From Peristeroidobacter agariperforans (GTDB taxonomy: Bacteria; Pseudomonadota; Gammaproteobacteria; Steroidobacterales; Steroidobacteraceae): 32,000 nucleotides of DNA. Under the pieces are notes generated by a model. It was not told where the DNA came from. It did no database searches and was given only the letters and a program-made list of their open reading frames with translations. Shown here in pieces: positions 5,265 to 30,103 of this stretch. The translations under genes and the position numbers were made by a program. The stretch spans positions 2,469,244-2,501,243 of the forward strand of contig NZ_RYFW01000001.1 in assembly GCF_004138335.1 (NCBI RefSeq), read 5' to 3'. Positions within the stretch are counted from its first letter, which is position 1, and each line of letters opens with the position of its first letter.

Positions 5265-5284
5265 TTCGCCGAAAATTCGGCGAA
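5265..5284. promoter_or_regulatory. 20-bp palindrome upstream of alpA (candidate operator)
   Basis: TTCGCCGAA-aa-TTCGGCGAA, a perfect 9-bp inverted repeat ~95 bp upstream of the alpA start. The equivalent site in copy B (10745..10764, TTCGCGGAA-aa-TTCGGCGTA) is imperfect. Confidence 0.3.
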
Positions 5285-8691: not shown

Positions 8692-8785
8692 CCTGTGGTG
8701 GCACCCCGGAGCGGTGGTTTGAAAACCCGCAAATCGAGGCTGGCACCCACGAATTTGAGGTGACACCCCAGGAGCGAGGTGGCTT
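8692..8785 (+). promoter_or_regulatory. conserved integrase leader, copy B
   Basis: GGCACCCCGGAGCGG...GGCACCCACGAATTTGAGGTGACACCCCAGGAG, colinear with 3212..3302. Confidence 0.3.
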
Positions 8786-10132
8786 ATGAACAAGCTCACA
8801 GACGTAGGGATACGCGCACTATTGGCCAAACCACGGGCCGGCCGCGTCGAGTTGCCTGACGGCGCAGTGCCTGGACTCACACTGCGAATTGGAAAAACGC
8901 GGGGCGCGACATGGTCGTTGATGATCCGCGTATTCGGCGAAGGTGGCATCACCGATCGGGGTCACGGGCTGATGGGCCCGAAGCGACGGCTAACACTCGG
9001 CTCGTACCCGCAGGTCTCGTTGCACGCTGCCCGAGCAAAGGCCAACACGTTTATCGATCAGGCGCGGCGCGGTGAGAGTCCGGTTGAAGCGCTCGAGCGG
9101 GTAGCGACCGGGCGGCTCACTGTTGAAGGTCTAGCTGAAAGATTCCTTACCGACTACGTCCATCTCAAGCGACTTCGCGCTGGGACCAGATATGAGATGG
9201 CCATCCGGACTCACATCATAGAAGGAGTGGGCCGGGTGGTGGCCGACATGCTCACTCGCGACCAGGTGCGCGACCTCATGAAGAAGGCCATGGTTAAGGT
9301 GCCTTCAACTCGTGAAGGAAAGACGCGCCGTCGCGGTGGCATCGAAGCAGCGAGAAGCGTAGTTGCTGTCCTTCGTAAGATGATCAACTGGGGCATTCGT
9401 GAGCGGCTGCTGAAGCGCGCGGACAATCCAGTTTCGGGAATGGAGGACAACCTGCCAAAGAAGAGGAAGAAGGAGCGCGTGCTGTCTCTGGAGGAAGCGC
9501 AGGTCGTCTGGCAAGCCGCTGGGACCCTCGGCTATCCGTTCGGTCCGCTCTATCGCCTGATCATGCTAACGGGTTGCCGACCGGGCGAGTGGGCGCGATG
9601 TCGGCAGTCGTATATTGACCTCAAGCAGTCCCTGCTGGTCATTCCAGCGCAGGCATACAAAAGCGACCACGTGCATGTGGTGCCGCTCGTGCCGGTCGCG
9701 GTTCAGATACTCGAACACACTTTGGCGAACTACGCTGGACGACAGGGCGACTTCGTCTTCAGCGGCACCGACGGTCTCGCGCCGGTGTCTGGATGGTCGA
9801 AGGGGCACAGCAGAATGATGCAGGCCGTGACGGCGGTGTCCGGCGAGCGAGGTTTGGTGCCGTGGACTCCGCACGACTTGCGACGCACCGTCGCGACTCG
9901 GATTGCGGAGCAGTTGGGTGTTGGTGGTGAGCAGTTGATAAAGCGAGTTCTGGGCCACGCCGATGGCAGCGTCACGGCGATCTACAACCGATATGGCTAT
10001 GTGAAGGAGATGCGCGAAGTGCTCGAGCGCTGGGCGGAGGATCTTATCGGCGCTGAGTTTGATGCTGCGAGCCTATGGCGTGAGTCGGACGCGAACGCCT
10101 ATGTGATCGTGGAGCCGACCGAAGCGGCGTAG
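8786..10132 (+). CDS. int: tyrosine recombinase / integrase, paralogue of 3303..4649
   Basis: 448 aa, the same length and motifs as int-1. I counted ~65-70 substitutions and no indels. Confidence 0.95.
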   Translation: MNKLTDVGIRALLAKPRAGRVELPDGAVPGLTLRIGKTRGATWSLMIRVFGEGGITDRGHGLMGPKRRLTLGSYPQVSLHAARAKANTFIDQARRGESPVEALERVATGRLTVEGLAERFLTDYVHLKRLRAGTRYEMAIRTHIIEGVGRVVADMLTRDQVRDLMKKAMVKVPSTREGKTRRRGGIEAARSVVAVLRKMINWGIRERLLKRADNPVSGMEDNLPKKRKKERVLSLEEAQVVWQAAGTLGYPFGPLYRLIMLTGCRPGEWARCRQSYIDLKQSLLVIPAQAYKSDHVHVVPLVPVAVQILEHTLANYAGRQGDFVFSGTDGLAPVSGWSKGHSRMMQAVTAVSGERGLVPWTPHDLRRTVATRIAEQLGVGGEQLIKRVLGHADGSVTAIYNRYGYVKEMREVLERWAEDLIGAEFDAASLWRESDANAYVIVEPTEAA

Positions 10133-10283
10133 GAGGAGCATGCTCGCGGCGCTAATGGCCCAGAGTAGCATCTCCTGGGCGTCAGCGGCGCAATCCGGTC
10201 GGGGAGTAAAAGACCGCTCGGAGGCCGCAACGACGCGGCGCTGCCGAGCGCTGAAGCTGACGGGTCATGACGGAGGGACCGAG

Positions 10284-10649
10284 TCAGCGTTCAATCAGAG
10301 GCGTGCTGGATGTGATGCGTGCGGCAAGCCAGGCCTGCACCTCCGACTCCACCCATGCGACACGTCTGGGAGATAGCTGCACTCGCATTGGAAAGTCGCC
10401 CTGAATCTGCAGTTGATAGATCTTGGTTTTGCTCAAGCCGGTGATCGCTGCGACTTGAGAGAGCCGGAGCATGCGGATCGGTGTCGTCGGCTGTACATCG
10501 TGCGGTACTTGCGATTGTGCCGGAGGAACTGACGCGATCGCACGGCCGGCGAGCGCGTGGCTCTCGCCGTGCCCAGCCGTGCCGGCCAGGCGCGTAGCCG
10601 CGGGTGCAGTGGGTATCGCACGGAGCGATCGGGACGAATACGAGTTCAT
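10284..10649 (-). CDS. alpA: AlpA-family regulator, paralogue of 4805..5170
   Basis: IRMLRLSQVAAITGLSKTKIYQLQIQGDFPMRVQLSPRRVAWVESEVQAWL. Start taken at the internal ATG 10649 (MNSYSS...), equivalent to copy A. Confidence 0.85.
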   Translation of the reverse strand: MNSYSSRSLRAIPTAPAATRLAGTAGHGESHALAGRAIASVPPAQSQVPHDVQPTTPIRMLRLSQVAAITGLSKTKIYQLQIQGDFPMRVQLSPRRVAWVESEVQAWLAARITSSTPLIER

Positions 10650-11045
10650 GATCGTTACTCCTGATGTGATTGCGATGATCAACGGGGGCGACGTTCCACC
10701 CATGCACAGCATTCCTCAGTGGTCAGGAAAAGCCCAGGGGGAGTTTCGCGGAAAATTCGGCGTATTGGATCGGCATTTGGCTCGAGTTTCGCCGCCTTTG
10801 TACAGGCGTAGTTCAGCTTGGGGACCATTCACCCGAACAAGATCATTCCCCATCCGCCAGGGAATGTCAGGCGGAGAAATTGACGAGAATTGATAAAAAC
10901 AGAGGGTGTGTTAGCTCCGTCGGAGTGCGATTGCAAGGGCTCAGGTGAGTGTCGCGACAGCGGTCCTTTCGGGGCCGGGTGCCATCGAGGTGGCCGGAAG
11001 CAGCAGGCGGTGTGTTCGATTCGACGGGATTCGATCCGAATCGGC

Positions 11046-11882
11046 TCAATCGGGATTGGACGCCGCGGCGGCGGAGTCCCTGTCGATGAATTGCGCAGCG
11101 TCGGGAAAAATCTGGTTGATGATCTCCGCCACCAGGCGTCGTGCGCTCAGCGATTGGTTATCCAGCGCGGTTGTGCCGTGCGCGTGCTCGTTTCTCAGAA
11201 AAGGAATGTTCTTGAGAACCTGTCCGACATAGTCGTGATCGCGATCTTTGTCGTTGATCTCGAGCTGCGAGTCGTCGATCTCGAGTTCCGAGAGGCCCAA
11301 GGCCTTCATTTTATCAATTGTCTCAATGCTCCTCCGGGATTGCGCTCGAAGTCGGGCCTTTAGCCGCCAGGCGCTGAAGTTCTCGTTCTTCACAGCGCCG
11401 ATTTCAATCGCGAATCCCAGGAGTGCATGCAGCATCGGGCGGAACTTCTCCTTGTCCAGCGGCTGATACGGCTTGGCATTCTGCTGATCGCCTTTGATCT
11501 TGCTCTCGTACAATGATCGGCGCTTCCGCTCTTCCTGCGCGTAAAGGTCATCCTTGAAGCGAATCTTGAGCGCGAGCTCGAGACTCTGATATGCGTGACT
11601 TCGAGCGGCTGAATGAAACCGATACACAAACCACGAGAAGAGGTTCAGGTTCTTGGCGGTCTCGAAACTGGCAACGACCGCGGACGGAACTCCAGGGTGA
11701 AGGGTGACCTCGGCGACCGCCTGGTGCTGATCCTGCAGTGCTTTCGGCCGGAAACCCTGCGGTCCAAGAATCTCGAATCCTGAGCTGCGCGGATCAGCAC
11801 CGAAACGTTCTTGGGTGAGCGGAGAAAATCGGGATGGTCGGGCATGGCTACGTGGCTTGTGACTGCTTGAGTAGAGGTTCAT
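11046..11882 (-). CDS. HEPN-like / Abi-like protein (R-x4-H motif)
   Basis: 278 aa, predicted helical. The C-terminal PFLRNEHAHG fits the HEPN R-x4-6-H motif and the RN-x-x-AH signature seen in Abi_2/DUF4145-type HEPN families. No SD precedes ATG 11882, so the start is uncertain. Confidence 0.5.
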   Translation of the reverse strand: MNLYSSSHKPRSHARPSRFSPLTQERFGADPRSSGFEILGPQGFRPKALQDQHQAVAEVTLHPGVPSAVVASFETAKNLNLFSWFVYRFHSAARSHAYQSLELALKIRFKDDLYAQEERKRRSLYESKIKGDQQNAKPYQPLDKEKFRPMLHALLGFAIEIGAVKNENFSAWRLKARLRAQSRRSIETIDKMKALGLSELEIDDSQLEINDKDRDHDYVGQVLKNIPFLRNEHAHGTTALDNQSLSARRLVAEIINQIFPDAAQFIDRDSAAAASNPD

Positions 11883-12114
11883 GAACTATCTTTGGCATAA
11901 ACATTCTCCGTTGTTGAAGAGCAGAACCAATTGATCGTAGAGGACGGGTCCTCCTCAACTTCCTCGCCGACCAACGCGGCGCAGTTGTTCGGTACTGCGG
12001 GTGAGATCAGTTTCGCTGGCCTCACCCCATCCGCTTTGCGTTCCCGTTACAGCGGTAAGGTCAGTATGGGTCCAGCTGACGAGTTCCTGCAATTTGACCC
12101 TACTCGTGCAACCG

Positions 12115-13911
12115 TCAAGGCAGGAGCTGTGCGACCACAGACTCCATGTCGTTATTGATGTTGTTCGAGTCAGAGAAGAATTGCCTGGCGTGCCGCTGGT
12201 CATCAAAGTGCTTCTCCAACCCCAACAGTGTTTCGAGCTTGCTAGGAATTTTAGCTACGCGGTTCCCGTTCAGTTCGTTGAGAATCGGAGCGTTCTGGGG
12301 GTGATCTTCGTCCTTTCCGTCTAGCTCGAGCATGACCGCGTATTTCAGGCCGAAGGCGTTGAGTATCCGTTGAAACTTCGGGATCTCGCCTTTGCTACCA
12401 GTAACCACAACGGAGACGCCGATCTCATCCGGCAGCTCATTGATCTTGCCAAGTTTCCTGGCGGTGGCTATTACCCCAACGTCGTCTTCCGGCCCTTCGA
12501 CGAGGATGGCCTCCCGGGCAAAGAAAACCTCGTTGTGCTTGAGCCCGAAACACGTGAGCATCTTGAAGACCTTTCGCTCATCCGGATTGCCGAGAATTCC
12601 ACGGGCGGCCTGAGTGATCACAGTGCCGGTGGGAAGATCGGGCTTTCGAACAAGGCCGATGCGCTGATAGTTCCAGACCTCAATAAAGGCTGGTGAATGA
12701 GTGGTGTAGATCACCTGGTCATCGCCGGTCGGTTCGGCATCGTCGTCGCCAACGCCGGCGAACTCCCGAAGGACGCGGAAAATCAGCCGCTGGCAGTGAG
12801 GGTGAATGTAGAGCTCTGGTTCTTCAATCGCGAGGATGATCGGTCTGCGATCACCCACCGACCGCTGATGCGCTGAGCTGATTAGCATTTGCAGCAGCGA
12901 GAACACCACGCTTCGTTGCATTCCGTGCCCCTTATCGACAACGTCCGTTAGAACCCCGTCGTCGATTCGAATGGTCACTCCGCGTGCGAAGATGTCCTTC
13001 GAGGCATCTACCTGAACTTCAAGTCTAATGGAGGAAACGCTTGGCATGAGCTTCTTCATCACGTCGCGAAGAGATGTCTCAACACCGCCCAATGCTTCCA
13101 ACCGTTTGGTCCCTCCATCATCACCAACACAGTTCAGTAACGCGTGCACACGGCCGAGCGCCTCTTCCAATTCCTTGTGCCTCGGGTCCGCGCTCATAAT
13201 TCGATCTGAAAGATCTGCCATAAGGCGCCTGAATACCGTGCTCGACGAGCGCCGATCGATCTCCTCGGAATAGTCGGTAATCGCGGGAAGCAGGTATAAC
13301 TCCGGCAACGCGGAAAGAAGGTTCTGAGGAATGCCCAGCGCATGCGTCGTACCAAGCTGTGGCTCGTCGTATTCCACGTTGTGTTCGGAGAGATATCGCT
13401 CGAGTCCAGCCTTGTAGCTGGTCTTAGTGACCTTTCCTTCTGGCGTTTGAACGTAGTCAATAAGGCCATGCTCCGCGGCGACCTCCTGCCACTTGGGGCG
13501 AGCGTTTTCAGCCTCCATCTTCGCGATCGAGAGCCAAGGACTACGAGGTTCAGCTTGATATCCGTGATACTCCGCCTTCACTGATTTGCGGTCCTTAGCT
13601 TCGTCGTCGTGAATTCGTAGCTCCTTTCGGAGAATGATCTTGTCACCGATTAGGTAAGGACGGAGGCGCTTGGCTTCTTCTTCATTGAGGCTGCCAAATT
13701 CGCACTCGATCACACAAGGCGAATCGCGGTCATTAAAATCCCGGATTTCCATTCCGCCTGAGCCGCTGGTCAGAAAGCAGTGGAGGGCGCGAAGGCAGTT
13801 GCTCTTTCCTGAGTTGTTCTCTCCCACGAGAGCTTGCAGTGATTCGATGCGAATATCGCCGGAATCGCGAATCGATCGATAGTTTTGGATTCGGAATCTC
13901 GCTAATCGCAT
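12115..13911 (-). CDS. OLD-family ATP-dependent endonuclease (AAA/ABC-type ATPase plus TOPRIM)
   Basis: Start at the internal ATG 13911, with GGAGG 4 nt upstream. MRLARFRIQNYRSIRD...LVGENNSGKSN (P-loop). PIILAIEEPELYIHP (Walker B/D-loop region typical of AAA_15/OLD). C-terminal FFAREAILVEGPEDD and LELDGKDED are TOPRIM-like acidic motifs. Confidence 0.9.
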   Translation of the reverse strand: MRLARFRIQNYRSIRDSGDIRIESLQALVGENNSGKSNCLRALHCFLTSGSGGMEIRDFNDRDSPCVIECEFGSLNEEEAKRLRPYLIGDKIILRKELRIHDDEAKDRKSVKAEYHGYQAEPRSPWLSIAKMEAENARPKWQEVAAEHGLIDYVQTPEGKVTKTSYKAGLERYLSEHNVEYDEPQLGTTHALGIPQNLLSALPELYLLPAITDYSEEIDRRSSSTVFRRLMADLSDRIMSADPRHKELEEALGRVHALLNCVGDDGGTKRLEALGGVETSLRDVMKKLMPSVSSIRLEVQVDASKDIFARGVTIRIDDGVLTDVVDKGHGMQRSVVFSLLQMLISSAHQRSVGDRRPIILAIEEPELYIHPHCQRLIFRVLREFAGVGDDDAEPTGDDQVIYTTHSPAFIEVWNYQRIGLVRKPDLPTGTVITQAARGILGNPDERKVFKMLTCFGLKHNEVFFAREAILVEGPEDDVGVIATARKLGKINELPDEIGVSVVVTGSKGEIPKFQRILNAFGLKYAVMLELDGKDEDHPQNAPILNELNGNRVAKIPSKLETLLGLEKHFDDQRHARQFFSDSNNINNDMESVVAQLLP

Positions 13912-13912
13912 G

Positions 13913-16144
13913 TCACCTCCGCGTTCCTGATACGAGCTCACGGGCAGCCGTTCGTGCCCCGCTGAATGATAGATGCAATGAAGCGAACGATTGCTTGAGC
14001 AACGAATCGGGCAGCGCCCAGTCCCATTTACTCCTGCGCATGTTGAAGACGTCCGTCAGTAGGCGCATGTAGTCGACATCGGTAAGCTCTGCAATGTCCG
14101 TGAGTGCGTCATGCAATCTGTCGATTCCGTACTTCTCGACTATCAGGTAAATGCCTTCGTTCTCCACTCGTTCGATCCCAAGGCCACGAAGTATCAGCAC
14201 TAGCGCGTCATTCGTAGGGTCGCCTCGCCATGTGAAAAGCGAAATCGCCTCCCCGCTCCTTAGCACGATCTCGCTGGATAGATTGAGGTCTGCGTATTGG
14301 CGCCGCGCTTCTGCGAGTAGTGCGTTCGCGGTTTGGTCGAGGAAACCGACTTGGTCAGCTGTTGCGAGAACACTTCGCATCTCCGAGCGAACTACATCGT
14401 GCGTGCTTGCTCTGCTTCCGCCGAACGATGGAGGCATGCCGCCGGGATCTGCGACAACACATACAATAAGAGCTTCATCTTCAACAGAGGTGGCTAGCCA
14501 TCGACGGCCGGCAAAGATGAGCCTCATTCCAACGAATATCGGAGAACTTATCGGTAGGGTGCCTATGGTCTGTCCTTGGCACACGATCTGCCACTCGTCC
14601 TCAGAAGTGAAAGCTGCATAGAAATCGTGACTTCCGACCAGTTGCTCACCTGTTTGGCCGAGAAGCAGGAGGCCGGTGCGATCCTGGGTAATTAGGTCTT
14701 TTAGCCCAAGGCCGCGTAGTAGTTCGCCGAACTCTGGCTGCGTCAGGCCGCCAAAAGGTCCTTCCAAGACGAACAATCTGTAGAGCGGCCCGGCATGTGC
14801 GCCGCCGCGCTCAGCAATAACCGATAGAATTTGTTGGACCAGAGTTGATAGATGCAAGCCAGCCGCGTTCGGTGGCTCGTACCAGCCGCGCAGCAGCAGG
14901 CGAATCATCGCGATCGACTGCACCAGCGACTCTCGAAGTCGATCTGAGAAAGAGGACCGGTCGGTCAAAGATTGCTCAATGTTGTACGACCGGAGTATCG
15001 CGGGCTCGCCGGGACGCCGCCCGGACCGACCAAGGCGCTGACGAATGGACGCGACGGAGGGGCCGGGCCCAATTTGCGCTACAGTTTTGACGGCGCCGAT
15101 GTCGATGCCAAGCTCTAGTGTCGTGGTACAAACGGCGGTGGCCGGCCGATCTCCGGCCTTAAGCGCTTTTTCAGTTTCCTCTCGGATCGAGCGCGAGAGG
15201 CAGCCATGATGGGGCCAGAACTCGACGGGAACAGAGTCAGACTCGCATTTGCGCCTTAGCGCATCTGTATAGAACTCCACCTTCTTGCGCGAGTTCGGGA
15301 ATACTAGGTTGTTAGATCCTCTCAGGACATTGTAGAGGTGATCTGCAATGGCGTACTCGGCGCCGAGAAGTCGGTCTTCGCCCTCGCTGTCGTTTTCAGG
15401 GTCTTCGATGACGGCAGGGGAAAGATAGCCACGCACCTGCACGCGTAAATCTTGATTGCCCGCTTTCGACACGATCAGGTCAACGCTGCTGGGGCTGCCG
15501 GGTCGCAGGTATGCGGCTGCAAGATTCATGTCTCCGAGCGTCGCCGAAAGCCCTATCCGTGGTATGCGCTTGGTTGCGGCATGCTCCATTCGATGGAGTA
15601 ACGATTGCATCTGCTTGCCGCGCTCGGTGCCAATGAATGCGTGCAACTCATCAACAACTACATACATGACCTCCGCAAAGAGGCGCGGCGCCTCGCTGCC
15701 TCGCCTGACGAAGATCGCTTCCAAAGACTCGGGAGTGATGAGAAGAACACCGCGCGGATGACGTAGAAAGCGCTGCTTCCTGCTTTGAGAGATGTCGCCA
15801 TGCCATGGAATGACCGGAATTTCTAAGGATTCGCAGAGCTGCTCCAGTCGCCCCCACTGATCATTGATCAGCGCCTTTAGCGGACTGGTGTAAATGGCGA
15901 GTGCGGACTCCTCGCCGGCGTTTGCAATTCTCGTTAGGATTGGTAGAAAGGCGGCTTCTGTTTTTCCAGCTGCAGTGGCTGCAGCGATGATTAAATCCCG
16001 CTGACCTTCGAGGATCGGCTTTATAGCCCGCTCTTGGGCATCCCTGAGTGATGTCCAGCCCTTTGACCACACCCAGCGCTGAATGCTGGGATGAAGGAGG
16101 TCGAAGCTAGAATCGTCAGAGCTTGAAGGACGCGAGCTCGTCAT
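13913..16144 (-). CDS. sngC: Lhr-like DEAD/DEAH-box SF2 helicase (Shango SngC-like / BrxHI-like)
   Basis: 743 aa. Motif I AATAAGKTEAA, motif II VVDELH, motif III LSATLG, motif VI QRLGRSGRR. The stop TGA (13915..13913) is separated by 1 nt from the OLD ATG. Confidence 0.9.
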   Translation of the reverse strand: MTSSRPSSSDDSSFDLLHPSIQRWVWSKGWTSLRDAQERAIKPILEGQRDLIIAAATAAGKTEAAFLPILTRIANAGEESALAIYTSPLKALINDQWGRLEQLCESLEIPVIPWHGDISQSRKQRFLRHPRGVLLITPESLEAIFVRRGSEAPRLFAEVMYVVVDELHAFIGTERGKQMQSLLHRMEHAATKRIPRIGLSATLGDMNLAAAYLRPGSPSSVDLIVSKAGNQDLRVQVRGYLSPAVIEDPENDSEGEDRLLGAEYAIADHLYNVLRGSNNLVFPNSRKKVEFYTDALRRKCESDSVPVEFWPHHGCLSRSIREETEKALKAGDRPATAVCTTTLELGIDIGAVKTVAQIGPGPSVASIRQRLGRSGRRPGEPAILRSYNIEQSLTDRSSFSDRLRESLVQSIAMIRLLLRGWYEPPNAAGLHLSTLVQQILSVIAERGGAHAGPLYRLFVLEGPFGGLTQPEFGELLRGLGLKDLITQDRTGLLLLGQTGEQLVGSHDFYAAFTSEDEWQIVCQGQTIGTLPISSPIFVGMRLIFAGRRWLATSVEDEALIVCVVADPGGMPPSFGGSRASTHDVVRSEMRSVLATADQVGFLDQTANALLAEARRQYADLNLSSEIVLRSGEAISLFTWRGDPTNDALVLILRGLGIERVENEGIYLIVEKYGIDRLHDALTDIAELTDVDYMRLLTDVFNMRRSKWDWALPDSLLKQSFASLHLSFSGARTAARELVSGTRR

Positions 16145-17411
16145 CCTCAGTCACCCTTTCGCTCGCGCCACCCGTGTCCTCATCTACCTCGATGACATCC
16201 AGCAACTCGCGCCAGCTCGAGTCGCGATGTTGTTCGAGCGTTGCAAGGAGGTTGAGGAAAGCCGTGATAGTGGTTCTCGGTGTTCGAAAGTAGGCTTCCC
16301 CGAGTCTCTTGGATGCATGCTGCATGAAGGCAACCAGGCCCTCATTTGGTACCAAGTAGTTCGCCTCCTCTCCGCTTGCATAGACATGTCTTAGTTTTTG
16401 AAGGAGAACAAAGAAGTCCTCGTTGGTAAGGCTAGCTAGCCGGAGCACCGGACCCGAGAAGTCTTGAATGCCAGCTCGGGCAGCGATCGTATTCTCGGCC
16501 AACCGTGATTGCAGCGCAGAGTAGCTGTAAAGGCCGCGGCGAGTGTCCAAGAGGAACTCGGGTGTGCCGCCTAGAATGAAGCCGAGCCCTTCTGCTGAGC
16601 CTTGCAGCGAATCATTCAGAATGCGAAGGATTTGCTCGTAGTTCGCATTGCGTGCTTGAGCATTGGCGAGTTTGTACAAGTTCACCATTTCATCGAGGCA
16701 GATGAGTAGTCCCGAGAATCCGGCAAGGCGCACGAATCGCGCTAGCAGCTTCAGCTGATCGTAGAATGCATCGTCGTCGACGATCGTCCTTACTCCCAGC
16801 GCGGATCGGGCATCTGTCTTGGTTGTGAATTCACCGCGAAGCCATCGAATGGCATCTGCTTTAAGTCGATCGTTCCCTTCCTCGAACCCTCGGCAGTAAG
16901 CGGCTACCACCTCGGCAAAGTCGTAGCCTCCTACCATCTCTGACAAATTGGCCAGCTTCTCGCGAATGATGTCTTCAGTGCTTTTGCCCGAGGTTTTCGA
17001 TTCTGTCTTCGCCTGCGCTACGAACTTCTCAACAACGCCCGGCAGTGCCCCGCCATCCGACTTGGTCCGCGTCGAGAAATTCTTCATCAGTTCCGCATAC
17101 AGCGAACGTGCTTGACCTCCGGATGCCTGCAGCCGACGGTCCGGATTTAGGTCGGCGTGCGCTGTAACAAGGCGCTTCTCCATGCCGATGGCGCGCACCA
17201 AGTTCAAGAAGAATGTCTTACCCGCACCGTACTCTCCGATCACAAGACGGAACCCTGTGCCTCCATCTGCTATACGTTCGATATCCCGCAGTAGCGTTTC
17301 GATTTCGCGGGCTCGTCCGACTTGGATGAGATGTTGGCCGGTTCGCGGGACGACGCCAGCGCGTAGAGCCTGGACAACGGTATCCCGCTCCTTCGATTTG
17401 ATCTTTGTCAT
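16116..17411 (-). CDS. sngB: DUF2791 / BrxD-like P-loop ATPase (Shango SngB-like)
   Basis: 431 aa. Walker A GEYGAGKT and Walker B LLICLDEM. Length and layout fit the BrxD/DUF2791 family. It overlaps the helicase gene by 29 nt. Confidence 0.85.
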   Translation of the reverse strand: MTKIKSKERDTVVQALRAGVVPRTGQHLIQVGRAREIETLLRDIERIADGGTGFRLVIGEYGAGKTFFLNLVRAIGMEKRLVTAHADLNPDRRLQASGGQARSLYAELMKNFSTRTKSDGGALPGVVEKFVAQAKTESKTSGKSTEDIIREKLANLSEMVGGYDFAEVVAAYCRGFEEGNDRLKADAIRWLRGEFTTKTDARSALGVRTIVDDDAFYDQLKLLARFVRLAGFSGLLICLDEMVNLYKLANAQARNANYEQILRILNDSLQGSAEGLGFILGGTPEFLLDTRRGLYSYSALQSRLAENTIAARAGIQDFSGPVLRLASLTNEDFFVLLQKLRHVYASGEEANYLVPNEGLVAFMQHASKRLGEAYFRTPRTTITAFLNLLATLEQHRDSSWRELLDVIEVDEDTGGASERVTEDDELASFKL

Positions 17412-19708
17412 GCGGCGAGTTTCTCCGAGACGTCGCGCGAAATCTCCACTGGGTCATCTCCTTCGATCAAAGCTTCATCGAATTGTTCGAAGGAGGCTTC
17501 ATTGATGCGCTCGAGCGCTCCGTCGAGCATTAGCTCCATATCGGCCGCCGCATCAACAAGATCTTGCCGCTGCCACGAGGATCGGGTCAGTAGTAGGCGA
17601 AGGAACGTGCTGTGCTCGGGATCCAGCCCTAAGAGAGTCGGCTCCGAGACAGGCTTCATTTCATCCTGCTCCTCTTCGGACTCAACTGAGGCTGGTGCGT
17701 CGATGAACACACTTGAAAGAAGAGTTGCGACTTGCTCGGTCTCGCGCTGGAGCGCCTCGATGCGCGCCATGTCCAGTGAAAGGCCGCCGGTCACGTGCCT
17801 GCTTGGAGTCGTAGTGGTGGCTGCAGTATTGGTTGCACTAGGGGCCCCCGCTGCTATATGCAGGTCGGTGTACAGTGCTTGCGCATCAACCTCGAGCGCC
17901 TTGTAGATGCGTTCGAGCAGACGCACCTCGGCGGGGGATACAGTGCCATCAACCTGCGCAAGGGTCGAAAGCAGGTGCGCAAGGGCGCGTCTCGCGTCTG
18001 CTGGGATAATGTCGAGTTTTCCCCTCAGTGCTGCGAGAGACGGCGGGGCCTCAATGGCCATTCGGAGTCGCGCTCTGAGTCGTTTGCGTTGGGGCTCGGA
18101 TAGCTGCACCCAACTATCGATCTGCTTCATCAGGAGACGCAATTCATTCGGGTGAGGATTTCCGTCTGCCGACGCCACACTGCATGCCAGATCAAGCGTG
18201 ACGGAGGCGGCTTGATAGGAGCCGGATTGCCGCAATGCTGCGTCTTCTCGCGCGCAGCGGAAGAGAATGATTTGATCGTCCGCCTTCGGAGTTCGCGCGC
18301 CGCCGAGAATGTCAGGTTCGATACCGACGTTGATCTCTTCGAGCGCGTGGGCGAGTGAGCGAAGACGATCGCGCGTCAGCGAGGCTGAGCCGCCGAGAGA
18401 GGAGACTAGCTCTCCGATAGTCATTACTCGCAGGCCGTCTTGAATCTTTTCGTTGAGGCCCTGCATAGCGGCGGCCGTAGCGTCCGGCCACAGTGCTCTT
18501 GGAAGTAATAGCGCTGCTTCGAGGGATGTCGCCTGAGCGGGGTTCTTCCCTACGAATCGCGAGTAGGGTGCTAAGGCACTAGCACATTTCTCGATCAAGG
18601 CTTCTAGCTTCTTGAGCGGTGCCACGACCGCAGTTATATCGGGAATGCCGTCTGTATCGACTGAGAGCTCACTTCCACCAAAGCCACTGGAGGCCGGCCG
18701 ATAACTCAACCGAATCTTCGTGCGATTGACGGGCAACTTGATGCCCTCTCCGAATTGCTCTGTATAGAGCTTCGCGAAAAGGGTCTCGAACTGCAGAGGG
18801 CACCGTTGAAGCGCTTTAGGAAGCTTTAGACGAGGATCGCTGAGTGCCCAGGCCACGGCCCACGATGTCGGGACGGGCTTTCCTCGCATTGCCATCCGGC
18901 CTAAGCCAAGCCGCAGTTCTACAGAGAAGTCTCTGGATGGCGGAGGTGGTTGGTCGCCAGGCGAGTCTCCGAGGCGGTGCGGTGCTAGGAACTCAATGAA
19001 CGACGATGCATATCGCCGAAATGAGCGATTCTGCCCATAGATCGCGATGAGTCGACGAACTTCGGCCTCGATCGCCGGTAGGTCTGCCTTGGCCGCCGGA
19101 TCTGACGCCGCGTCGACGAGGGCCCGTCTCTCCAGGCCGTAGAAAAAGAGGAAGACGTAGCCGATGTCTGCTGTCGGATCGCTTCGGCCGGTCGCCAGCC
19201 ACTCAATATATGCTCGGCGTGCGGAATCGGAGATGGCTGTGTAGCTTGGCCAATAGTCCATCTGTCGCGTGGCAAGTTCCGGCACATCAGCTGACAGTGG
19301 GTAGCGTGGATCGATGAGGGCAGGGTCGACCTGTCCGTTGGCTGCACGCAGATCAGATCCCAGATACAGCATGCCGCCTCGGACCGTAGTTCCGGCAATG
19401 GTCGTTGCCTGGTTCGCGGGAATCCAACAAGCTGGAATCGCGCGTCCCTTTGGTGGGTGGGGCGCCGGGCGGGTGCCACGGTACGTTTGTAGTGCGTCGA
19501 GCCGCATTGGGGCGTCGGGGGCATAGCCCTGAGATTGTGACGAGGAGGAGCTTTTGCTCTTGGAAATGAGCCAAAAAATTAGGGCTGCGGCGGCTACGAT
19601 TCCTATGACTACCCAGAGTTCTTTAGGAATTGTGGCAATCGCCAAGACAATCGCGCCGACGACGACCGTTGCGGCTCCCCCTGAGTCGCCTTTTCTTCTT
19701 CGTGCCAT
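17408..19708 (-). CDS. sngA: membrane-anchored TerB-N / TerB / TerB-C domain protein (Shango SngA-like)
   Basis: 766 aa. Two N-terminal hydrophobic segments (VVVGAIVLAIATI, VVIGIVAAAALIFWLI). TerB-N-like block WIPANQ...GGMLYLG...YWPSY...YIEWLATGR...YVFLFFYGLERR. Central TerB-like block DLACSVASADGNPHPNELRLL. TerB-C-like tail LLLTRSSWQRQDL...LMLDGALERINEASFE. Its stop overlaps the ATPase start (ATGA 17408..17411). Confidence 0.9.
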   Translation of the reverse strand: MARRRKGDSGGAATVVVGAIVLAIATIPKELWVVIGIVAAAALIFWLISKSKSSSSSQSQGYAPDAPMRLDALQTYRGTRPAPHPPKGRAIPACWIPANQATTIAGTTVRGGMLYLGSDLRAANGQVDPALIDPRYPLSADVPELATRQMDYWPSYTAISDSARRAYIEWLATGRSDPTADIGYVFLFFYGLERRALVDAASDPAAKADLPAIEAEVRRLIAIYGQNRSFRRYASSFIEFLAPHRLGDSPGDQPPPPSRDFSVELRLGLGRMAMRGKPVPTSWAVAWALSDPRLKLPKALQRCPLQFETLFAKLYTEQFGEGIKLPVNRTKIRLSYRPASSGFGGSELSVDTDGIPDITAVVAPLKKLEALIEKCASALAPYSRFVGKNPAQATSLEAALLLPRALWPDATAAAMQGLNEKIQDGLRVMTIGELVSSLGGSASLTRDRLRSLAHALEEINVGIEPDILGGARTPKADDQIILFRCAREDAALRQSGSYQAASVTLDLACSVASADGNPHPNELRLLMKQIDSWVQLSEPQRKRLRARLRMAIEAPPSLAALRGKLDIIPADARRALAHLLSTLAQVDGTVSPAEVRLLERIYKALEVDAQALYTDLHIAAGAPSATNTAATTTTPSRHVTGGLSLDMARIEALQRETEQVATLLSSVFIDAPASVESEEEQDEMKPVSEPTLLGLDPEHSTFLRLLLTRSSWQRQDLVDAAADMELMLDGALERINEASFEQFDEALIEGDDPVEISRDVSEKLAA

Positions 19709-20194
19709 ATCCGTGCTCTGCGTTACTTATTTCTCAAACCGTCCCGCTCGGTTGCACCCATGTAAGTGAGCCGCTTTTCGAGTGTATTGCGAATGACCCG
19801 AGGATCCAAGGACTTGCGATGGTCCTGCGTCGGTCCGGTTTACAGGTTGCCTAAACCTGTTTTCTCAACATCGGGCGAAATAGTCGCGCTGGTTCAAACA
19901 GACGAGACGGTCGGCAACCGATTGCTGCTGGTGATGTCTCACTCGCGTGGGTGCTGCTAATTTGATGCTTCACCCCTGGCGTGACCGGATCAGTGATGCT
20001 GCGAGTGCTCTAAGATCCGCCACGATCTCGCCGAGGTCGCCGCGGCCGACCAGGGATATGGAATATCGTCCACGGCAACGTGATCGTATCAGCCCGGTCG
20101 TGCTCTGTACCTTCGATGCCATCGTTAGGCGACCCGTTTCACAGTTATTCCAACAGGACTCAATAAACTCTCAACCGTTACAGAGGGGCCGTCC

Positions 20195-20989
20195 ATGTCG
20201 AAGCGACGTGAATCACTGGCAGACGTGCTTTTGGTGCTCCCGTGGTGGATCAGTGTGGTTGTCGCCGCAACCGTATATGCCTTGTTTGCGTTTGCTTTGC
20301 CTCACTATTTCGCAGGCGAGCAGAACATGGCCGGCATCGGCATGGTGTCGAAGAATAGTGCTGCACTCTTCGCAGGATTGTTTTTGCTCATCGGCCTGCT
20401 CAGCTTCATCCGAGCTCTCGTCATCAAGCGGAAGTTCAACGATCTCGCGTGCCTCGAACAGGTGCGGCAGCTTTCCTGGCGCCAGTTCGAATCGATCGTT
20501 GGCGAGGCATTCCGCCGCCGCGGCTATGTAGTCATCGAGAATGCAGTGGATGGCCAGGATGGCGGTATTGATCTGGTGCTCCGAAAGGACGGCGCGAAGT
20601 ACTACGTACAATGCAAGCAGTGGAAACAAGCGAAAGTCGGCGTAAGGCCGATTCGGGAGCTCTACGGTGTGATCGCGGCCAGCGATGCTTCCGGTGGGTT
20701 CTTCGTTGTCTCGGGTGAGTATACGAATGAAGCGCGTGATTTTGCGCGCAAATCCGAAATTGAACTGATCGACGGTCCGGCACTAGCTGAAATGATCGCG
20801 CTGGCCCGCGAGCCAGAACCTTTCATGGACCCAACGAGACGCAGGCGGGAGTCTCCCACTGTGGATCCCGCTTGCGCGCTATGCGGAGGCGCTATGGTGT
20901 TAAGAAAGGCGACACGAGGGCCTCATGCTGGCCTCTCATTCTGGGGCTGCGGTTCGTATCCGCGATGTCGCGGGACGAAACCGGCGTGA
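20195..20989 (+). CDS. membrane-anchored Mrr-type restriction endonuclease domain protein with C-terminal topoisomerase-type zinc ribbon
   Basis: 264 aa, with AGAGGGG 7 nt upstream of the ATG. Two TM segments (VLLVLPWWISVVVAATVYALFAFAL, ALFAGLFLLIGLLSFIRALVI). Mrr_cat-like core FESIVGEAFRRRGY...DGGIDLVL...YYVQCKQW (D...D/E-x-K type). C-terminus CALCGGAMVLR...FWGCGSYPRC (C4 zinc ribbon). Confidence 0.85.
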   Translation: MSKRRESLADVLLVLPWWISVVVAATVYALFAFALPHYFAGEQNMAGIGMVSKNSAALFAGLFLLIGLLSFIRALVIKRKFNDLACLEQVRQLSWRQFESIVGEAFRRRGYVVIENAVDGQDGGIDLVLRKDGAKYYVQCKQWKQAKVGVRPIRELYGVIAASDASGGFFVVSGEYTNEARDFARKSEIELIDGPALAEMIALAREPEPFMDPTRRRRESPTVDPACALCGGAMVLRKATRGPHAGLSFWGCGSYPRCRGTKPA

Positions 20990-21518: not shown

Positions 21519-21812
21519 ATGCTGAGCATCGAGTTTGATCGAGCTATCTACCCTGTAGAGGTGCTTCAGCGGGCTGCTTTGAAGTTCACGGACGTATGTA
21601 GCTTCAACTTCCGGCTTGCCGAGGCCAAGATCGCTGTGGAGATCGCGCCTCTGAATGACTCATACGCCCTACGCGCGGACGATTTCGAAGGCAGGTACAG
21701 GAATGAGGTGCTAGATCAGCACCTCAGAGCGATAGTTGCCAAAGAAACGGAGAATGAGCGCAACTTGATTCTCGCTCACGCATTCTCCAACTCCAAATTG
21801 ATCTCAGCCTAG
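21519..21812 (+). CDS. hxsD: HxsD-like small protein
   Basis: 97 aa. RNEVLDQHLRAIVAKETENERNLILAHAF resembles the signature block after which the HxsD family model was named (LLNDYxLRE). Position between hxsA and hxsB fits. The stop abuts the next start (TAGATG). Confidence 0.7.
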   Translation: MLSIEFDRAIYPVEVLQRAALKFTDVCSFNFRLAEAKIAVEIAPLNDSYALRADDFEGRYRNEVLDQHLRAIVAKETENERNLILAHAFSNSKLISA

Positions 21813-23285
21813 ATGGCTCTCGCGAAGCGATTCTCAGCTGTCGAAACATTTCGGGCTGTGGAGATGGCGGGGTACCGCCTATTGCCCCTCAGGTTCACCG
21901 CTCTCGATCAAGAGCGATATGTCATTTCAAACATGGTCGGAGAGTATCTGGTAGTCAAGCGCGACCAGCTCAACGACCTGATCCACCACCGGGTGCCGCA
22001 GGGCTCAGATCTGTACGATGAGTTCAAGAGCCGCCATTTCATACGAGATGCGGACTCTGATGTAGCCCTCGATCTGCTCGCGTTGAAGTACCGGACAAAG
22101 CTGGCGCGAGTGTCGCAGTTTACGTCGCTGCACATGTTTGTGGTGACGCTGCGTTGTGACTACACGTGCGCGTACTGCCAGGTCTCGCGGCAGACCGAGG
22201 ACCGCTCTGCTTACGATATGAGCGACGACACTGCAGCCGCTGCGGTCGAAATGACATTTCGTAGCCCGGCGCCCGCGATCAAGATTGAGTTCCAGGGCGG
22301 CGAGCCGCTGCTGGCCTTCGATCGGATCAAGTCAGTCGTGGAAATGGCTGAGGCGCGCAACGTGCAGGAGAAGCGGAACCTGCAGTTCGTCATTGCTTCG
22401 AACCTGAGCTTGATTTCCGACGAGATCCTGGACTACTGCGATCGGCACGGCATCTATCTCAGTACGTCTCTTGATGGGCCGTCGAGTCTTCACGATCGCA
22501 ATCGCCCAAAACCAGGGAAGAATGGGTACGAGCTGACAATCCGTGGGATCAAAAGAATTCAAGATCGGTTGGGCCGAGATCGCGTGTCGGCGCTGATGAC
22601 GACGACCGAAAGAAGCCTCCCGTATGTCAAGGAAATCATCGACGAGTATGTGCGGCTGGGCTTCCGTAGCATTTTCCTCCGGCCACTGAGTCCCTACGGA
22701 TTTGCTGTCACAACGGGCCAGGTCGATAAATACGACGCGGAGCGGTGGCTGTCTTTCTATCGAGAGGGGCTGAGCTACATCCTCGAGCTGAACAAGCATG
22801 GCTACTCGATCCGCGAGACTTATGCGGCGATCATTCTGAGAAAGATGCTGACGCCGCAGAACCCTGGCTATGTTGACCTTCAGTCACCGACAGGTCTGGG
22901 AATAAGCGCGATCGTCTATAACTACGACGGAGCGGTCTACGCAAGTGATGAGTCGCGAATGCTGGCAGAGATGGGCGATCAGTCGTTCCGACTCGGCCGG
23001 CTGGGCGTGAACTCATACGAAGAGATGATGCTGTCGACGACATTGCTTGACGCGCTGGAGGCGGGAGTGGCGGAAGGTGCGCCCCTGTGCTCCGAGTGCG
23101 CATTCGTGCCGTACTGTGGCGCGGATCCTGTCTATCACCATGCAACACAGCGCGACATGATGGGAAATAAGGCTCTCAGCGGGTACTGCGCACGCAATAT
23201 GGCCATATTTCGACATCTGATTGCATTGATGGAGGACAGCCTGGCCGATAAGGCGATACTGCTTAGGTGGGCTTTCGATTGTTGA
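21813..23285 (+). CDS. hxsB: radical SAM (SPASM-type) maturase HxsB-like
   Basis: 490 aa. LRCDYTCAYCQ (CxxxCxxC), FQGGEPLL, and a C-terminal Cys-rich auxiliary-cluster region CSECAFVPYCGADP...GYCA. Confidence 0.9.
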   Translation: MALAKRFSAVETFRAVEMAGYRLLPLRFTALDQERYVISNMVGEYLVVKRDQLNDLIHHRVPQGSDLYDEFKSRHFIRDADSDVALDLLALKYRTKLARVSQFTSLHMFVVTLRCDYTCAYCQVSRQTEDRSAYDMSDDTAAAAVEMTFRSPAPAIKIEFQGGEPLLAFDRIKSVVEMAEARNVQEKRNLQFVIASNLSLISDEILDYCDRHGIYLSTSLDGPSSLHDRNRPKPGKNGYELTIRGIKRIQDRLGRDRVSALMTTTERSLPYVKEIIDEYVRLGFRSIFLRPLSPYGFAVTTGQVDKYDAERWLSFYREGLSYILELNKHGYSIRETYAAIILRKMLTPQNPGYVDLQSPTGLGISAIVYNYDGAVYASDESRMLAEMGDQSFRLGRLGVNSYEEMMLSTTLLDALEAGVAEGAPLCSECAFVPYCGADPVYHHATQRDMMGNKALSGYCARNMAIFRHLIALMEDSLADKAILLRWAFDC

Positions 23286-26142: not shown

Positions 26143-26178
26143 ACGTACGCCTTGATTGATGCGTCAAATGGCGTACGT
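26143..26178. terminator. hairpin between convergent PIN and NYN genes
   Basis: ACGTACGCC-N18-GGCGTACGT (9-bp perfect arms, inner TTGA/TCAA pairing). It overlaps the last codons of the minus-strand gene. No clear T-tract. Confidence 0.3.
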
Positions 26179-27028: not shown

Positions 27029-27826
27029 ATGTTCCCGGTCAACGAAGTTCTTCAGGGTGATTGCACTCGCGTACTGCGGCGGTTGCCGGATTCTTTCGTC
27101 GATCTCGTGGTAACCGATCCGCCCTACGGTGTCCGCTATCAAGACAGCAAAGGTCGGACGATTGCGAACGACGATGATCCGAATCGCATTCTGGGTGCAT
27201 TTACAGATCTGTACCGAGTTCTGAAGCCCAACAGCATCTGCATCTCCTTCTACGGTTGGGGCCAGGTGGATGCATTCTTCCGAGCCTGGCGCCGCGCTGG
27301 GTTTCGGCCGATCGGTCACATCGTTTGGGCCAAGGACTACGCGTCGCGCACACGCTATCTCCACTACCGCCATGAACAGGCGTACGTGCTGGCCAAGGGA
27401 TCCCCAAAGGTGCCGGGGCAGCCAATTGATGACATCCAGCCCTGGGTGTACTCGGGCAATCAGGATCATCCGACGCAGAAGGCGGTGAAGATTCTGACGC
27501 CGCTCATCGAAGCCTTCTCGCAGCCTGGGCAACTGGTCCTCGATCCCTTCGCTGGCTCCGGTAGCACCCTAGTGGCCGCTGCCTTGAATGGTCGACGCTA
27601 CCTTGGCGTTGAGCTGGAGCGCGATTACTGCCGCGTAGCCCGCGAGCGGCTTGCGAATGTGCAACGTCGGTTGTCTCACTCCCAAGGAGTGACGGCGGCA
27701 CTTGGGCACGACAACCGGGAACTACCACCGCTCGAGGTTGATGCTTTTATCCGGTGGCTGCGCGGGCAAGGCCAAGAGGGCGTCGCTCGATTCGTCGAAC
27801 GTGCACGCGCGGAGTATGGCTTGTGA
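27029..27826 (+). CDS. beta-class DNA methyltransferase (DPPY; probably N6-adenine)
   Basis: 265 aa, with GGAGA 8 nt upstream. N-terminus VLQGDCTRVLRRLPDSFVDLVVTDPPYG (motif IV), followed later by VLDPFAGSGSTLVAA (motif I). This IV-before-I order defines the beta class. Confidence 0.9.
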   Translation: MFPVNEVLQGDCTRVLRRLPDSFVDLVVTDPPYGVRYQDSKGRTIANDDDPNRILGAFTDLYRVLKPNSICISFYGWGQVDAFFRAWRRAGFRPIGHIVWAKDYASRTRYLHYRHEQAYVLAKGSPKVPGQPIDDIQPWVYSGNQDHPTQKAVKILTPLIEAFSQPGQLVLDPFAGSGSTLVAAALNGRRYLGVELERDYCRVARERLANVQRRLSHSQGVTAALGHDNRELPPLEVDAFIRWLRGQGQEGVARFVERARAEYGL

Positions 27827-28523
27827 CGGATAGGTGGCTATCCCAAACGGTCGCGTGCCGTCGCAAGTTGTCGCGCGACCGTTTTATATGTTGGCGTCGT
27901 CTTCACCATCCACGTCTCTGCCGGCAGATCAGATTGCGTGCTCCAGGCGAGTCGTCTCGCGCGCTGCTTCGATAGTCTTCCGACGCCGTGACGAATAAGG
28001 ACGGTGAGATCGGGTGAGCTTGTGGGAAAGCGAGACAGAGCCGCCTGCGGACGGCTTCCTGCCGCCGCCCAGCCCACAACTGGACCCGTAGAGATGGGCA
28101 TCGCCTGGACAGCGCCCGTCGGCCACGATGCGAGAACGAGTCCGCAGCTGTCTTCGTGACTGGGCAGGGTCTCTCCCTCGCGCGAGCGGCTCCTAGTGTG
28201 GCCGGTGATGCAGGCATCCGGCGGGGTGGTGGGCCAAGATCGAGAGGAGCGTTCTGGGTGATCGATACACAGGCGTCGCGTCGTCTGCATTTGGATGCAA
28301 GACAGTACGCCCACTAACGGCCGAGCACACCCGGCGATATATTCGAGACCTCATGCGCACCGAAGTCTCAGTCTCACCATAAAGCACACGCGCCCGAGGC
28401 CAAAGATCACTGACCTCAATAAAAATAGCAAATATCGCCAACGGTCGAACTCTTCCTCCTCGAACTGCCACGCACTCCGCTGGAATCAGTGACTGCGAAT
28501 GTTTGAGTTTCGATCAACAAAGC

Positions 28524-28543
28524 GGCCAATTGCAGGATTGGCC
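28524..28543. promoter_or_regulatory. candidate oriT hairpin upstream of mobC
   Basis: GGCCAAT-tgcagg-ATTGGCC (7-bp perfect inverted repeat), ~30 bp upstream of the mobC start and preceded by an AT-rich patch (CAATAAAAATAGCAAATAT). Confidence 0.3.
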
Positions 28544-28572
28544 TGCGGCTGCTTTTGTTTACACTCTGGTGC

Positions 28573-29124
28573 ATGGGAATCACGCACGTCATCGCTGCTC
28601 GCGTCTCCCCGGAGTCGAAAGCCCGGTTCCGCAGCCTTGCGGAACAGCAGCAGATGACCGAGTCGGCGTTGCTGAAACGGCTCGTCGATATGGCCGTACA
28701 CACCGGCGGCGTGAACGATGCCGATGTTCTGAAGTCGCCAGAGCGACGCCTGCGAGGCGCTCGGCTGTGTGTCCGACTGCACCCGGACGATCAGTTGTTA
28801 CTGGCAGAAAGGGCAGCAGCTCGGCAGATGCCGGCGGCTACGTACGTCTCCGTCCTGGTGCGCGCCCATCTGCGGACGCTGTCGCCGCTTCCCAAGGCGG
28901 AGCTGATGGAGCTCAAGCGCTCTGTCGCCGAGCTCAGTGCGATCGGTAGAAACCTCAACCAGCTGGCTCGTCTGGCACACCAGCGACCGGGCTCGGTCTC
29001 CCCCGGCGGGCAGGTTGTGCAAATGATGCTCAAGGTATGCGAAGCGATGCGCGCTCACATCAAGGGGCTGATCAAAGCCAACACCAGGAGTTGGGAGGCA
29101 GGCCATGCGAACGATCAGACTTGA
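28573..29124 (+). CDS. mobC: MobC-family relaxosome accessory protein
   Basis: SVAELSAIGRNLNQLARLAHQ is the MobC signature (L-x-x-I-G-x-N-L-N-Q-x-A-R). N-terminal RHH-like segments are present. The start is either 28555 or 28573. Confidence 0.8.
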   Translation: MGITHVIAARVSPESKARFRSLAEQQQMTESALLKRLVDMAVHTGGVNDADVLKSPERRLRGARLCVRLHPDDQLLLAERAAARQMPAATYVSVLVRAHLRTLSPLPKAELMELKRSVAELSAIGRNLNQLARLAHQRPGSVSPGGQVVQMMLKVCEAMRAHIKGLIKANTRSWEAGHANDQT

Positions 29125-30103
29125 GGCCGGTCGGCCGATCCTCGACATCATCAGCTATGGCCGTGCAGGTCCGGGCGCTCGGATTGCGCTGACGCCCGCT
29201 CAGATCGCACAGATCCACCGGACGGTCTCGCGAGCGCCCGAAGTGGTGGTCAAGGTCACGGGCGGTGGGGGTTCGACCACGGGTCGAGGCGTCAATGCTC
29301 ACTTCAGCTACATTGGCAGGCGAGGCGAGCTGGAGATCGAGACCGACGACGGCCAGCGCTTGACCGGTCGGGGAGTAGGTCGGCATCTGGTCGACGATTG
29401 GGACTTGGATCTAGAGGAGGATCGCAAGCGGCTCGACCTGTTCGCGATGAATCGGCGAAAGCCGCCGAAGCTTGTTCACAGGCTGATCTTCTCCATGCCG
29501 GCGGGCACGCCGCCACAGAAGGTACTAGCAGCCGTCCGCGACTTCGCTCGTGAGGAGTTTGGACTCAAACATCGATACGCGATGGTGTTGCATACGGATG
29601 AGCCGCACCCGCATGTGCATGTGGTCGTAAAAGCGCTCGGCGAAGATGGCGTACGGCTCAATATTCGCAAGGCGACTCTGCGACATTGGAGGCAGGAGTT
29701 TGCATGTCAGCTTCGAGCGCATGGCGTTGAGGCGAACGCCACGGAACGACATGTTCGTGGGCAAAGTCGGACGCCGAAGTTGGACTCCATTTTCAGAGCA
29801 GCTCAGAGGGGCGAGTCGTCGCACATGGCCGCGCGACTGGGCGATGTCGTGCGCGAGCTGAAAGCAGGATCCCTAGATAGATCCGGTGCCGCTCAGCTCC
29901 AGCGATCCAGAATTGAAGTCCTGCGCGGATGGAAAACCGTGCGGAATCTTTTGGTCGTCGAGGGGCAGCATCAGCTTGCCAACGATGTTGCGCGATTCGT
30001 CAACCAAATGCCGCCCGCGCGCACTGAGAAGGAGAGGTTGGCGCATGAGCTAATGGCGCTAGTGGGTCAGCAGCGTGAGAAGGATAGATCGCTCCTTCGC
30101 TAG
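29105..30103 (+). CDS. relaxase / mobilisation nuclease (MobA/VirD2-type)
   Basis: 332 aa, with GGAGG upstream. EVVVKVTGGG...AHFSYIGRRG (catalytic Tyr region) and HRYAMVLHTDEPHPHVHVVVKA (H-x-D-x(2-3)-H-x-H metal triad). It overlaps mobC by 20 nt. Confidence 0.85.
   Translation: MRTIRLEAGRPILDIISYGRAGPGARIALTPAQIAQIHRTVSRAPEVVVKVTGGGGSTTGRGVNAHFSYIGRRGELEIETDDGQRLTGRGVGRHLVDDWDLDLEEDRKRLDLFAMNRRKPPKLVHRLIFSMPAGTPPQKVLAAVRDFAREEFGLKHRYAMVLHTDEPHPHVHVVVKALGEDGVRLNIRKATLRHWRQEFACQLRAHGVEANATERHVRGQSRTPKLDSIFRAAQRGESSHMAARLGDVVRELKAGSLDRSGAAQLQRSRIEVLRGWKTVRNLLVVEGQHQLANDVARFVNQMPPARTEKERLAHELMALVGQQREKDRSLLR

Follow-up and report, generated by a model that had tools for sequence, protein, structure and literature searches.

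Within a 32,000-nucleotide stretch of the Peristeroidobacter agariperforans genome (contig NZ_RYFW01000001.1, positions 2,469,244 to 2,501,243; hereafter the window), four consecutive open reading frames (ORFs) on the minus strand, 19708..12115, encode the three proteins of the anti-phage system Shango (SngA, SngB, and SngC) followed by an OLD-family nuclease. Direct reading of the sequence revealed that these genes are tightly packed; sngA and sngB share the tetranucleotide ATGA (17408..17411), the reading frames of sngB and sngC overlap by 29 nt (16116..16144), and a single base separates the stop codon of sngC from the start codon of the OLD gene (ggaggTGAcATG). A GGAGG motif is located 5 nt 5' of the OLD ATG. 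All of this agrees with an earlier description of the locus made without database searches (the sequence-only reading), and the motifs it quoted for SngB, SngC, and OLD, together with the two N-terminal helices of SngA, were likewise present in the translations. The OLD start was placed at the ATG at 13911, rather than at the GTG further upstream at 13941, because the database protein has 598 residues and is 100% identical, and its homologues start with MRL. SngC is likewise 100% identical to its P. agariperforans database entry. Very strong profile matches identify the four ORFs as real genes, not chance ORFs. The features of the window are listed in Table 1.

Table 1. Genes and other features in and around the Shango-OLD operon (positions are those of the window).
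Feature	Position	Strand	Description
sngA	17408..19708	-	TerB_N/TerB/TerB_C protein, 766 residues, membrane-anchored, two N-terminal hydrophobic helices
sngB	16116..17411	-	BrxD-like (DUF2791, ORC/Cdc6-type AAA+) ATPase, 431 residues; start overlaps sngA stop
sngC	13913..16144	-	Lhr/BrxHI-like superfamily 2 (SF2) DEAD-box helicase, 743 residues
old	12115..13911	-	Predicted class-1-like (solo-type) OLD-family ABC-ATPase and TOPRIM nuclease, 598 residues, promoterless
Recombination junction, Shango block/OLD cassette	13926..13935		Within last codons of sngC; reciprocal homology ends
Divergent intergenic region upstream of sngA	19709..20194		Apparently the only non-coding stretch available for an operon promoter
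Integrase	8786-10132	+	Pfam Phage_integrase and Arm-DNA-bind_3; integrase-proximal island end
AlpA-like regulator	10284-10712	-	Phage_AlpA 7.1e-18
278-residue protein	11046..11882	-	Downstream of old at a distance of 232 nt; matches nothing in Pfam, PADLOC, or NCBIfam
Mrr_cat restriction-endonuclease-fold protein	20195-20989	+	3.2e-34; divergent from sngA
His-Xaa-Ser (Hxs) radical-SAM module	21519-24487	+	HxsD 7.1e-15, HxsB 6.3e-186, HxsC 7e-121; between Shango and PIN genes
PIN-domain proteins PIN_3, PIN7	25123-26070, 26164-26745	+, -	Convergent, between Hxs module and methylase
N6_N4 DNA methylase, NikA-like protein, MobA/VirD2 relaxase	27029..30103	+	Pfam; island backbone common to L166

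Profile searches supported the proposal that the TerB protein, the ATPase, and the helicase form a Shango triad, with the three PADLOC models and the Pfam domains in agreement. SngA matched its PADLOC model (2.6e-101) over residues 69-765, leaving the N-terminal membrane segment outside the match, and contained TerB_N (1.2e-52), TerB (2.1e-11), and TerB_C (2.9e-31), all three above the gathering cut-offs; its hydrophobic N-terminal segments lie at approximately residues 12-27 and 31-48 of the translation. SngB matched its model full-length (5.3e-180) as well as Pfam BrxC_BrxD (2e-151), and displays the Walker A motif GEYGAGKT and the motif LLICLDEM. The match of SngC (2.3e-267) covered profile positions 4-718 of 720 and was accompanied by Pfam DEAD and Helicase_C; its helicase motifs AATAAGKT, DELH, SAT, and QRLGRSGRR are intact, and the protein is 58-59% identical to SngC of Pseudomonas aeruginosa. 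The ATGA junction and the 29-nt overlap join the three genes, in the co-directional order A-B-C, into one operon-like unit, as expected of Shango. The kinship of SngB and SngC to BrxD and BrxHI, pointed to in the sequence-only reading, was also recovered with the corresponding PADLOC models (4.1e-44 and 1.3e-121, respectively), while SngB scored 146 bits against the NCBIfam BrxD equivalog, below its cutoff of 350.

To our knowledge, no effector has been recognised in Shango. Anti-phage defence has been demonstrated only for the Escherichia coli and P. aeruginosa homologues, and in the study that gave Shango its name the three genes, the only ones cloned, were sufficient for it in P. aeruginosa PAO1 (PMC10250203). 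A role in membrane surveillance is proposed for SngA in the literature. For SngB, a BrxD-related ORC/Cdc6-type AAA+ ATPase, a function in loading or activating its partner helicase has been suggested (PMC12839542).

The fourth ORF had been read as an OLD-family TOPRIM protein, an assignment that PADLOC and Pfam supported. Old was the best PADLOC model (2.1e-65), with the best GajA model at 1.2e-32 and other GajA models weaker, and Pfam disclosed AAA_15 (9.7e-31) and OLD-like_TOPRIM (3.3e-11, residues 463-531). In an alignment of 20 homologues the ATPase motifs GENNSGKSN, IEEPELYIHP, and THS, corresponding to Walker A, Walker B, and the H-loop, were invariant; so were, in the aligned homologues, the TOPRIM residues E472, G473, D476, E529, and D531, comprising the catalytic glutamate and the acidic cluster. 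The motif ILVEGPEDD is also present in the translation. A protein database search returned hundreds of homologues, many at 60-83% identity. The sole PDB sequence match was 6P74, annotated as a putative OLD-family endonuclease, which we take to be the full-length class 1 OLD of Thermus scotoductus, and phage P2 Old was ~25% identical over the C-terminal half. Because of these two matches, the solitary state of its orthologues, and a GajA score far below that of Old, the protein is predicted to be a class-1-like nuclease that works without a partner.

To locate the boundary between the two blocks, homology was traced from both sides (blastn). Homology to Shango relatives ends at 13926 (L164, 80.6% nucleotide identity), 13929 (L171), and 13935 (L165), and homology to solo OLD orthologues begins at 13926 (L082), 13915 (L083), and 13887 (L081) and extends to 12113-12155, at the OLD stop codon. 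Alignments revealed that the last ~15 nt 5' of the OLD ATG are like the G-rich ribosome-binding leaders of the solo orthologues and unlike other sngC 3' ends. Since Shango homology stops and OLD homology starts at 13926-13935, OLD appears to have come in as an ORF carrying no more than a ~15-nt Shine-Dalgarno leader, and this native leader would now encode the last few residues of SngC and its stop codon.

This arrangement leaves no promoter space 5' of OLD, and the gene would therefore depend on transcription from upstream, most likely from the promoter region of sngA at 19709-20194. The view that OLD belongs to the Shango transcription unit is thus favoured by a leader of only ~15 nt, too short to hold a separate promoter, and OLD is probably co-transcribed with Shango. 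A sigma-70 consensus scan of 10800-20400 returned fewer promoter-like sites than shuffled controls and none in the intergenic region upstream of sngA, the consensus being uninformative in this 58% GC genome. A terminator scan of the same interval gave no convincing terminator, with the same limit on consensus scans in GC-rich DNA.

We then asked where OLD orthologues occur in other genomes. Species-representative genomes were scanned with an alignment of OLD homologues, and the best 80 loci were kept. Counting L081, L082, and L083 as well, 15 loci were informative, meaning that the orthologue reached 40% identity or more (40-82%) and that no less than 2.5 kb of sequence was available upstream of it. 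None of the 15 contains any Sng gene, which places an upper bound of ~18% on the frequency of this adjacency among OLD loci. L081, L082, and L083, the closest orthologues with usable context (82-83% identity), are single genes behind 345-400 nt of non-coding DNA, and their neighbours are mutually unrelated (ParB/HTH genes, a Na/H exchanger, and a BglII restriction-modification system); no helicase gene adjoins any of the three. No conserved partner (UvrD helicase, retron reverse transcriptase, or AriB) was found beside OLD orthologues, whose neighbouring genes are mutually unrelated, and the genes downstream of them showed no homology to each other or to the 278-residue ORF that follows OLD in the window. 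The 278-residue protein was considered as a partner of OLD and set aside as variable cargo, given its absence beside OLD orthologues.

Only one other locus, in an archaeal (Methanophagales) island (L035:2899-12780), combined OLD with Sng-like matches; it was rejected as a second Shango-OLD locus, as its scanned ORFs contain no TerB domain. Besides a type ISP restriction enzyme and an SbcC-like ATPase, this island encodes an OLD that is apparently split, a pair of BrxD-like ATPases, and a helicase resembling SngC, and it is the only other locus with OLD and BrxD/helicase-type genes within a few kb.

The reciprocal scan, of metagenomes with an SngC alignment, again yielded the best 80 loci. Over the loci from all scans, the SngA-SngB-SngC triad was present in 72, with the A-B-C order read from coordinates. 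Fifty of the loci were informative, in that sngC was complete at its 3' end and 1.9 kb or more of sequence followed it. A homologue of the window's OLD was found in none of them, bounding the adjacency at ~6% of Shango loci, and a scan of viral contigs with SngC gave only two loci, neither with OLD. The genes downstream of sngC are heterogeneous and include housekeeping genes (Pfam scan of 96 ORFs). All-against-all BLAST of 281 downstream ORFs disclosed no conserved fourth gene; the sole cluster of more than two members was a nuclease-helicase of ~1130 residues, besides three two-member pairs. In P. aeruginosa, sngC is followed, after a gap of 254 nt, by ZnuA.

Comparison with the nearest Shango relatives showed that various genes follow sngC at close range. 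In L164 (SngC 87% identical), a 162-residue ORF of unassigned family overlaps sngC by 4 nt. In L165 (77%) and L171/L172 (76%), RNase_H_2 and superfamily 1 (SF1) helicase proteins of 1134 and 1129 residues follow after 9 nt and 31 nt, respectively, and in L166/L167, L170, and one further contig (75%), a SIR2-HerA pair begins after 13-15 nt and is followed by a KTSC protein and then by the same large nuclease-helicase. A PD-T7-1-like gene and a Gabija pair, on the same strand, begin 24 nt after sngC in L089, the only one of the 50 informative Shango loci with an OLD-family gene; this Gabija matched its own models at 1.7e-268 (GajA) and 5.8e-234 (GajB). Tight same-strand packing after sngC is thus a property of the island family. 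As it is also seen for autonomous systems such as SIR2-HerA and Gabija, the spacing is no evidence of membership in Shango.

The ~1130-residue protein recurs beside Shango on either strand and is particularly frequent in the clade nearest the window (L165:9564-12968; L171:10364-13753; L166:15443-18838; L158:10872-14285; L138:10710-14099 (-); L140:11652-14996 (-)). It combines an N-terminal RNase_H_2 (RecB-like) domain with an SF1 helicase (AAA_30/AAA_11/AAA_12), and its match to PADLOC MkoA/MkoC is confined to the C-terminal helicase part. Possibly this is a defence gene not yet described, or else one that often accompanies Shango, and the window's OLD occupies the position that it often holds in relatives.

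Taken together, these data make it likely that the locus joins a canonical Shango and an autonomous class-1-like OLD as two defence layers that act independently and share a transcript. In the proposed course of events, a solo-type OLD ORF with its ~15-nt leader recombined onto the 3' end of sngC, within the cargo slot of an integrative mobilizable element whose backbone runs from integrase and AlpA past Shango to methylase, NikA, and relaxase. The Shango promoter would then drive transcription of OLD, whose translation would use the gene's own Shine-Dalgarno sequence. Judging from what is known of the families, SngA would serve as a membrane-tethered TerB sensor, SngB as a BrxD-like AAA+ ATPase that possibly loads or activates the helicase, and SngC as an Lhr/Ski2-like helicase, while OLD could act alone as an ATP-regulated TOPRIM DNA nuclease, like P2 Old.

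The sequence-only reading had instead regarded OLD as an integral fourth component of Shango, a claim that did not hold up against the two scans (0/15 OLD loci with Shango, 0/50 Shango loci with OLD) or against the nearest Shango relatives, which hold other genes in that position at equally tight spacing. Recurrent adjacency of OLD genes to TerB_N/DUF2791/helicase triads, the lack of which had been named beforehand as speaking against the claim, was not seen in either sample. Its suggestion of a Shango variant with a nuclease effector fared no better, the adjacency being unique to this locus in the samples and three-gene Shango being sufficient for defence (PMC10250203). No description of such a four-gene architecture was found in the literature searched.

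Several points nevertheless weigh against two independent layers. The 1-base spacing and the lack of an OLD promoter impose strictly coupled expression, which fits functional integration as well. With Shango lacking an obvious effector, and a nuclease-helicase found at or near this position in relatives, repeatedly so after sngC in the closest Shango clade, a nuclease 'slot' is conceivable. For the auxiliary OLD-ABC/TOPRIM modules of BREX loci, which contain the related BrxD/BrxHI pair, a role as backup effectors has been proposed (PMC12839542). The samples are also limited to the best 80 loci per scan, and the resulting bounds are only ~6% and ~18%.

Apart from the sample limits, these observations speak for an alternative in which Shango has taken on OLD as its effector or backup effector, giving a lineage-specific four-gene system. 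On sensing infection, SngABC would activate or guide OLD, or else OLD would fire upon inhibition of Shango. We consider this unlikely, in view of the absence of the adjacency from every other locus in both samples, the solo state of the nearest OLD orthologues (82-83%), the autonomous SIR2-HerA and Gabija systems placed equally tightly in the same position, and the sufficiency of the three genes for defence. Slightly less likely still is a broader version, in which the position after sngC is, in this island family, a plug-in site that captures promoterless effector cassettes under the transcriptional, and perhaps functional, control of Shango; the cassettes seen there are OLD in the window and the ~1130-residue RNase_H_2/SF1 nuclease-helicase or SIR2-HerA elsewhere.

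The sequence-only reading had also raised a Gabija-like module, an OLD and helicase pair in which SngC would replace GajB under a TerB membrane sensor. An OLD-family nuclease does adjoin a helicase gene here and GajA profiles do match (1.2e-32 and weaker), yet the solo Old model scores far better, and a true Gabija, that of L089, reaches values of a different order for both proteins. Moreover, the helicase is of the SF2 Lhr/BrxHI type, occurs invariably alongside SngA and SngB, and is no SF1 UvrD-type GajB; no UvrD-type helicase was found among the window ORFs scanned, and the OLD orthologues have no helicase neighbour. This makes the Gabija-like pair very improbable. Even less credible is a fragment of type 2 BREX (Pgl), a BrxD/BrxHI dyad with an auxiliary OLD: SngB and SngC match the BrxD and BrxHI models, but the Shango models score far higher, SngB stays below the BrxD equivalog cutoff, a TerB_N protein is present, and PglX, PglZ, BrxC, and PglW were not found among the window ORFs scanned.

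The operon belongs to the defence cargo of an integrative mobilizable element and occupies a variable part of it. The window contains two related elements in tandem, with integrases 85% identical and a conserved block of ~2.2 kb at 3256-5427 repeated at 8738-10905; no tRNA gene was found in the window. The first element carries AbiEi/AbiEii as cargo. The second comprises, in order, the integrase, the AlpA-like regulator, the 278-residue gene, OLD, sngC-B-A, an Mrr-type nuclease, HxsD/HxsB/HxsC, two PIN proteins, the N6/N4 methylase, NikA, and the relaxase. The methylase-NikA-relaxase backbone is 62-70% identical (tblastn) to that of L166, with synteny in blastn; L166 shares Shango too, and its AlpA gene likewise lies beyond the cargo. 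Shango is therefore a conserved passenger of this family of mobilizable islands, located between two variable cargo slots, with OLD in the integrase-proximal one.

The 278-residue protein has one relative, 31% identical and 391 residues long, near Shango in L165 (12985-14160 (-)), where it adjoins a 1152-residue SF1 helicase; this relative had no match in the family libraries searched. A module homologous to Hxs (54-58% identity) lies in L001 (5885-8846 (-)), an unrelated alphaproteobacterial metagenome-assembled genome, ~1.2 kb away from an OLD orthologue of 63% identity. We know of no function for the Hxs system; its recurrence in defence-type settings may be of significance. The N-terminus of the Mrr_cat protein is hydrophobic and its C-terminus carries a topoisomerase-type zinc ribbon; its matches to PADLOC PDC-S02 and to models of type IV methyl-directed restriction are only weak. 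The PIN_3 and PIN7 proteins matched no PADLOC model and are possible toxin or defence candidates.

The locus provides a base-resolved case of defence-gene shuffling, in which an ORF with its ribosome-binding site appears fused to the last gene of another system under one shared promoter. It also counsels caution, as translational coupling and near-zero intergenic spacing are no evidence of functional integration in defence islands. If the cargo after sngC were the effector of Shango, it would be an interchangeable killing module, with a bearing on how Shango stops phages. For now the locus is useful for annotation and unsurprising, another Shango and another solo OLD in a defence island.

Compared with known systems, the locus is a combination of known kinds, Shango and a class-1-like OLD, and apparently not a new four-part system. 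It shares with Shango (Millman et al. 2022; Johnson et al. 2023, PMC10250203) the same three proteins, their order, the overlapping frames, and the setting in a mobile defence island. Canonical loci end at sngC, whereas here a promoterless OLD follows after 1 base and SngA bears two N-terminal hydrophobic helices. With class 1 OLD (phage P2 Old; T. scotoductus OLD, PDB 6P74), the fourth protein has in common the ABC-type ATPase and C-terminal TOPRIM architecture, the conserved Walker A, Walker B, H-loop, and TOPRIM glutamate, orthologues that are single genes, and Old as the best PADLOC model; it differs in having lost its own upstream region and in riding on the operon of another system, and is only ~25% identical to P2 Old. 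The likeness to Gabija (GajA OLD nuclease and GajB UvrD helicase) lies in an OLD-family nuclease beside a helicase gene on one strand, but the helicase of the window is Shango's own SF2 Lhr-like protein, and no UvrD-helicase domain was found in the window ORFs scanned. Finally, the BREX-embedded OLD-ABC/TOPRIM modules (PMC12839542) resemble the locus in placing OLD within an operon with a BrxD-like ATPase and a BrxHI-like helicase, possibly as a semi-autonomous backup layer, while here the host is Shango and the association stands alone, with no recurrence in the samples.

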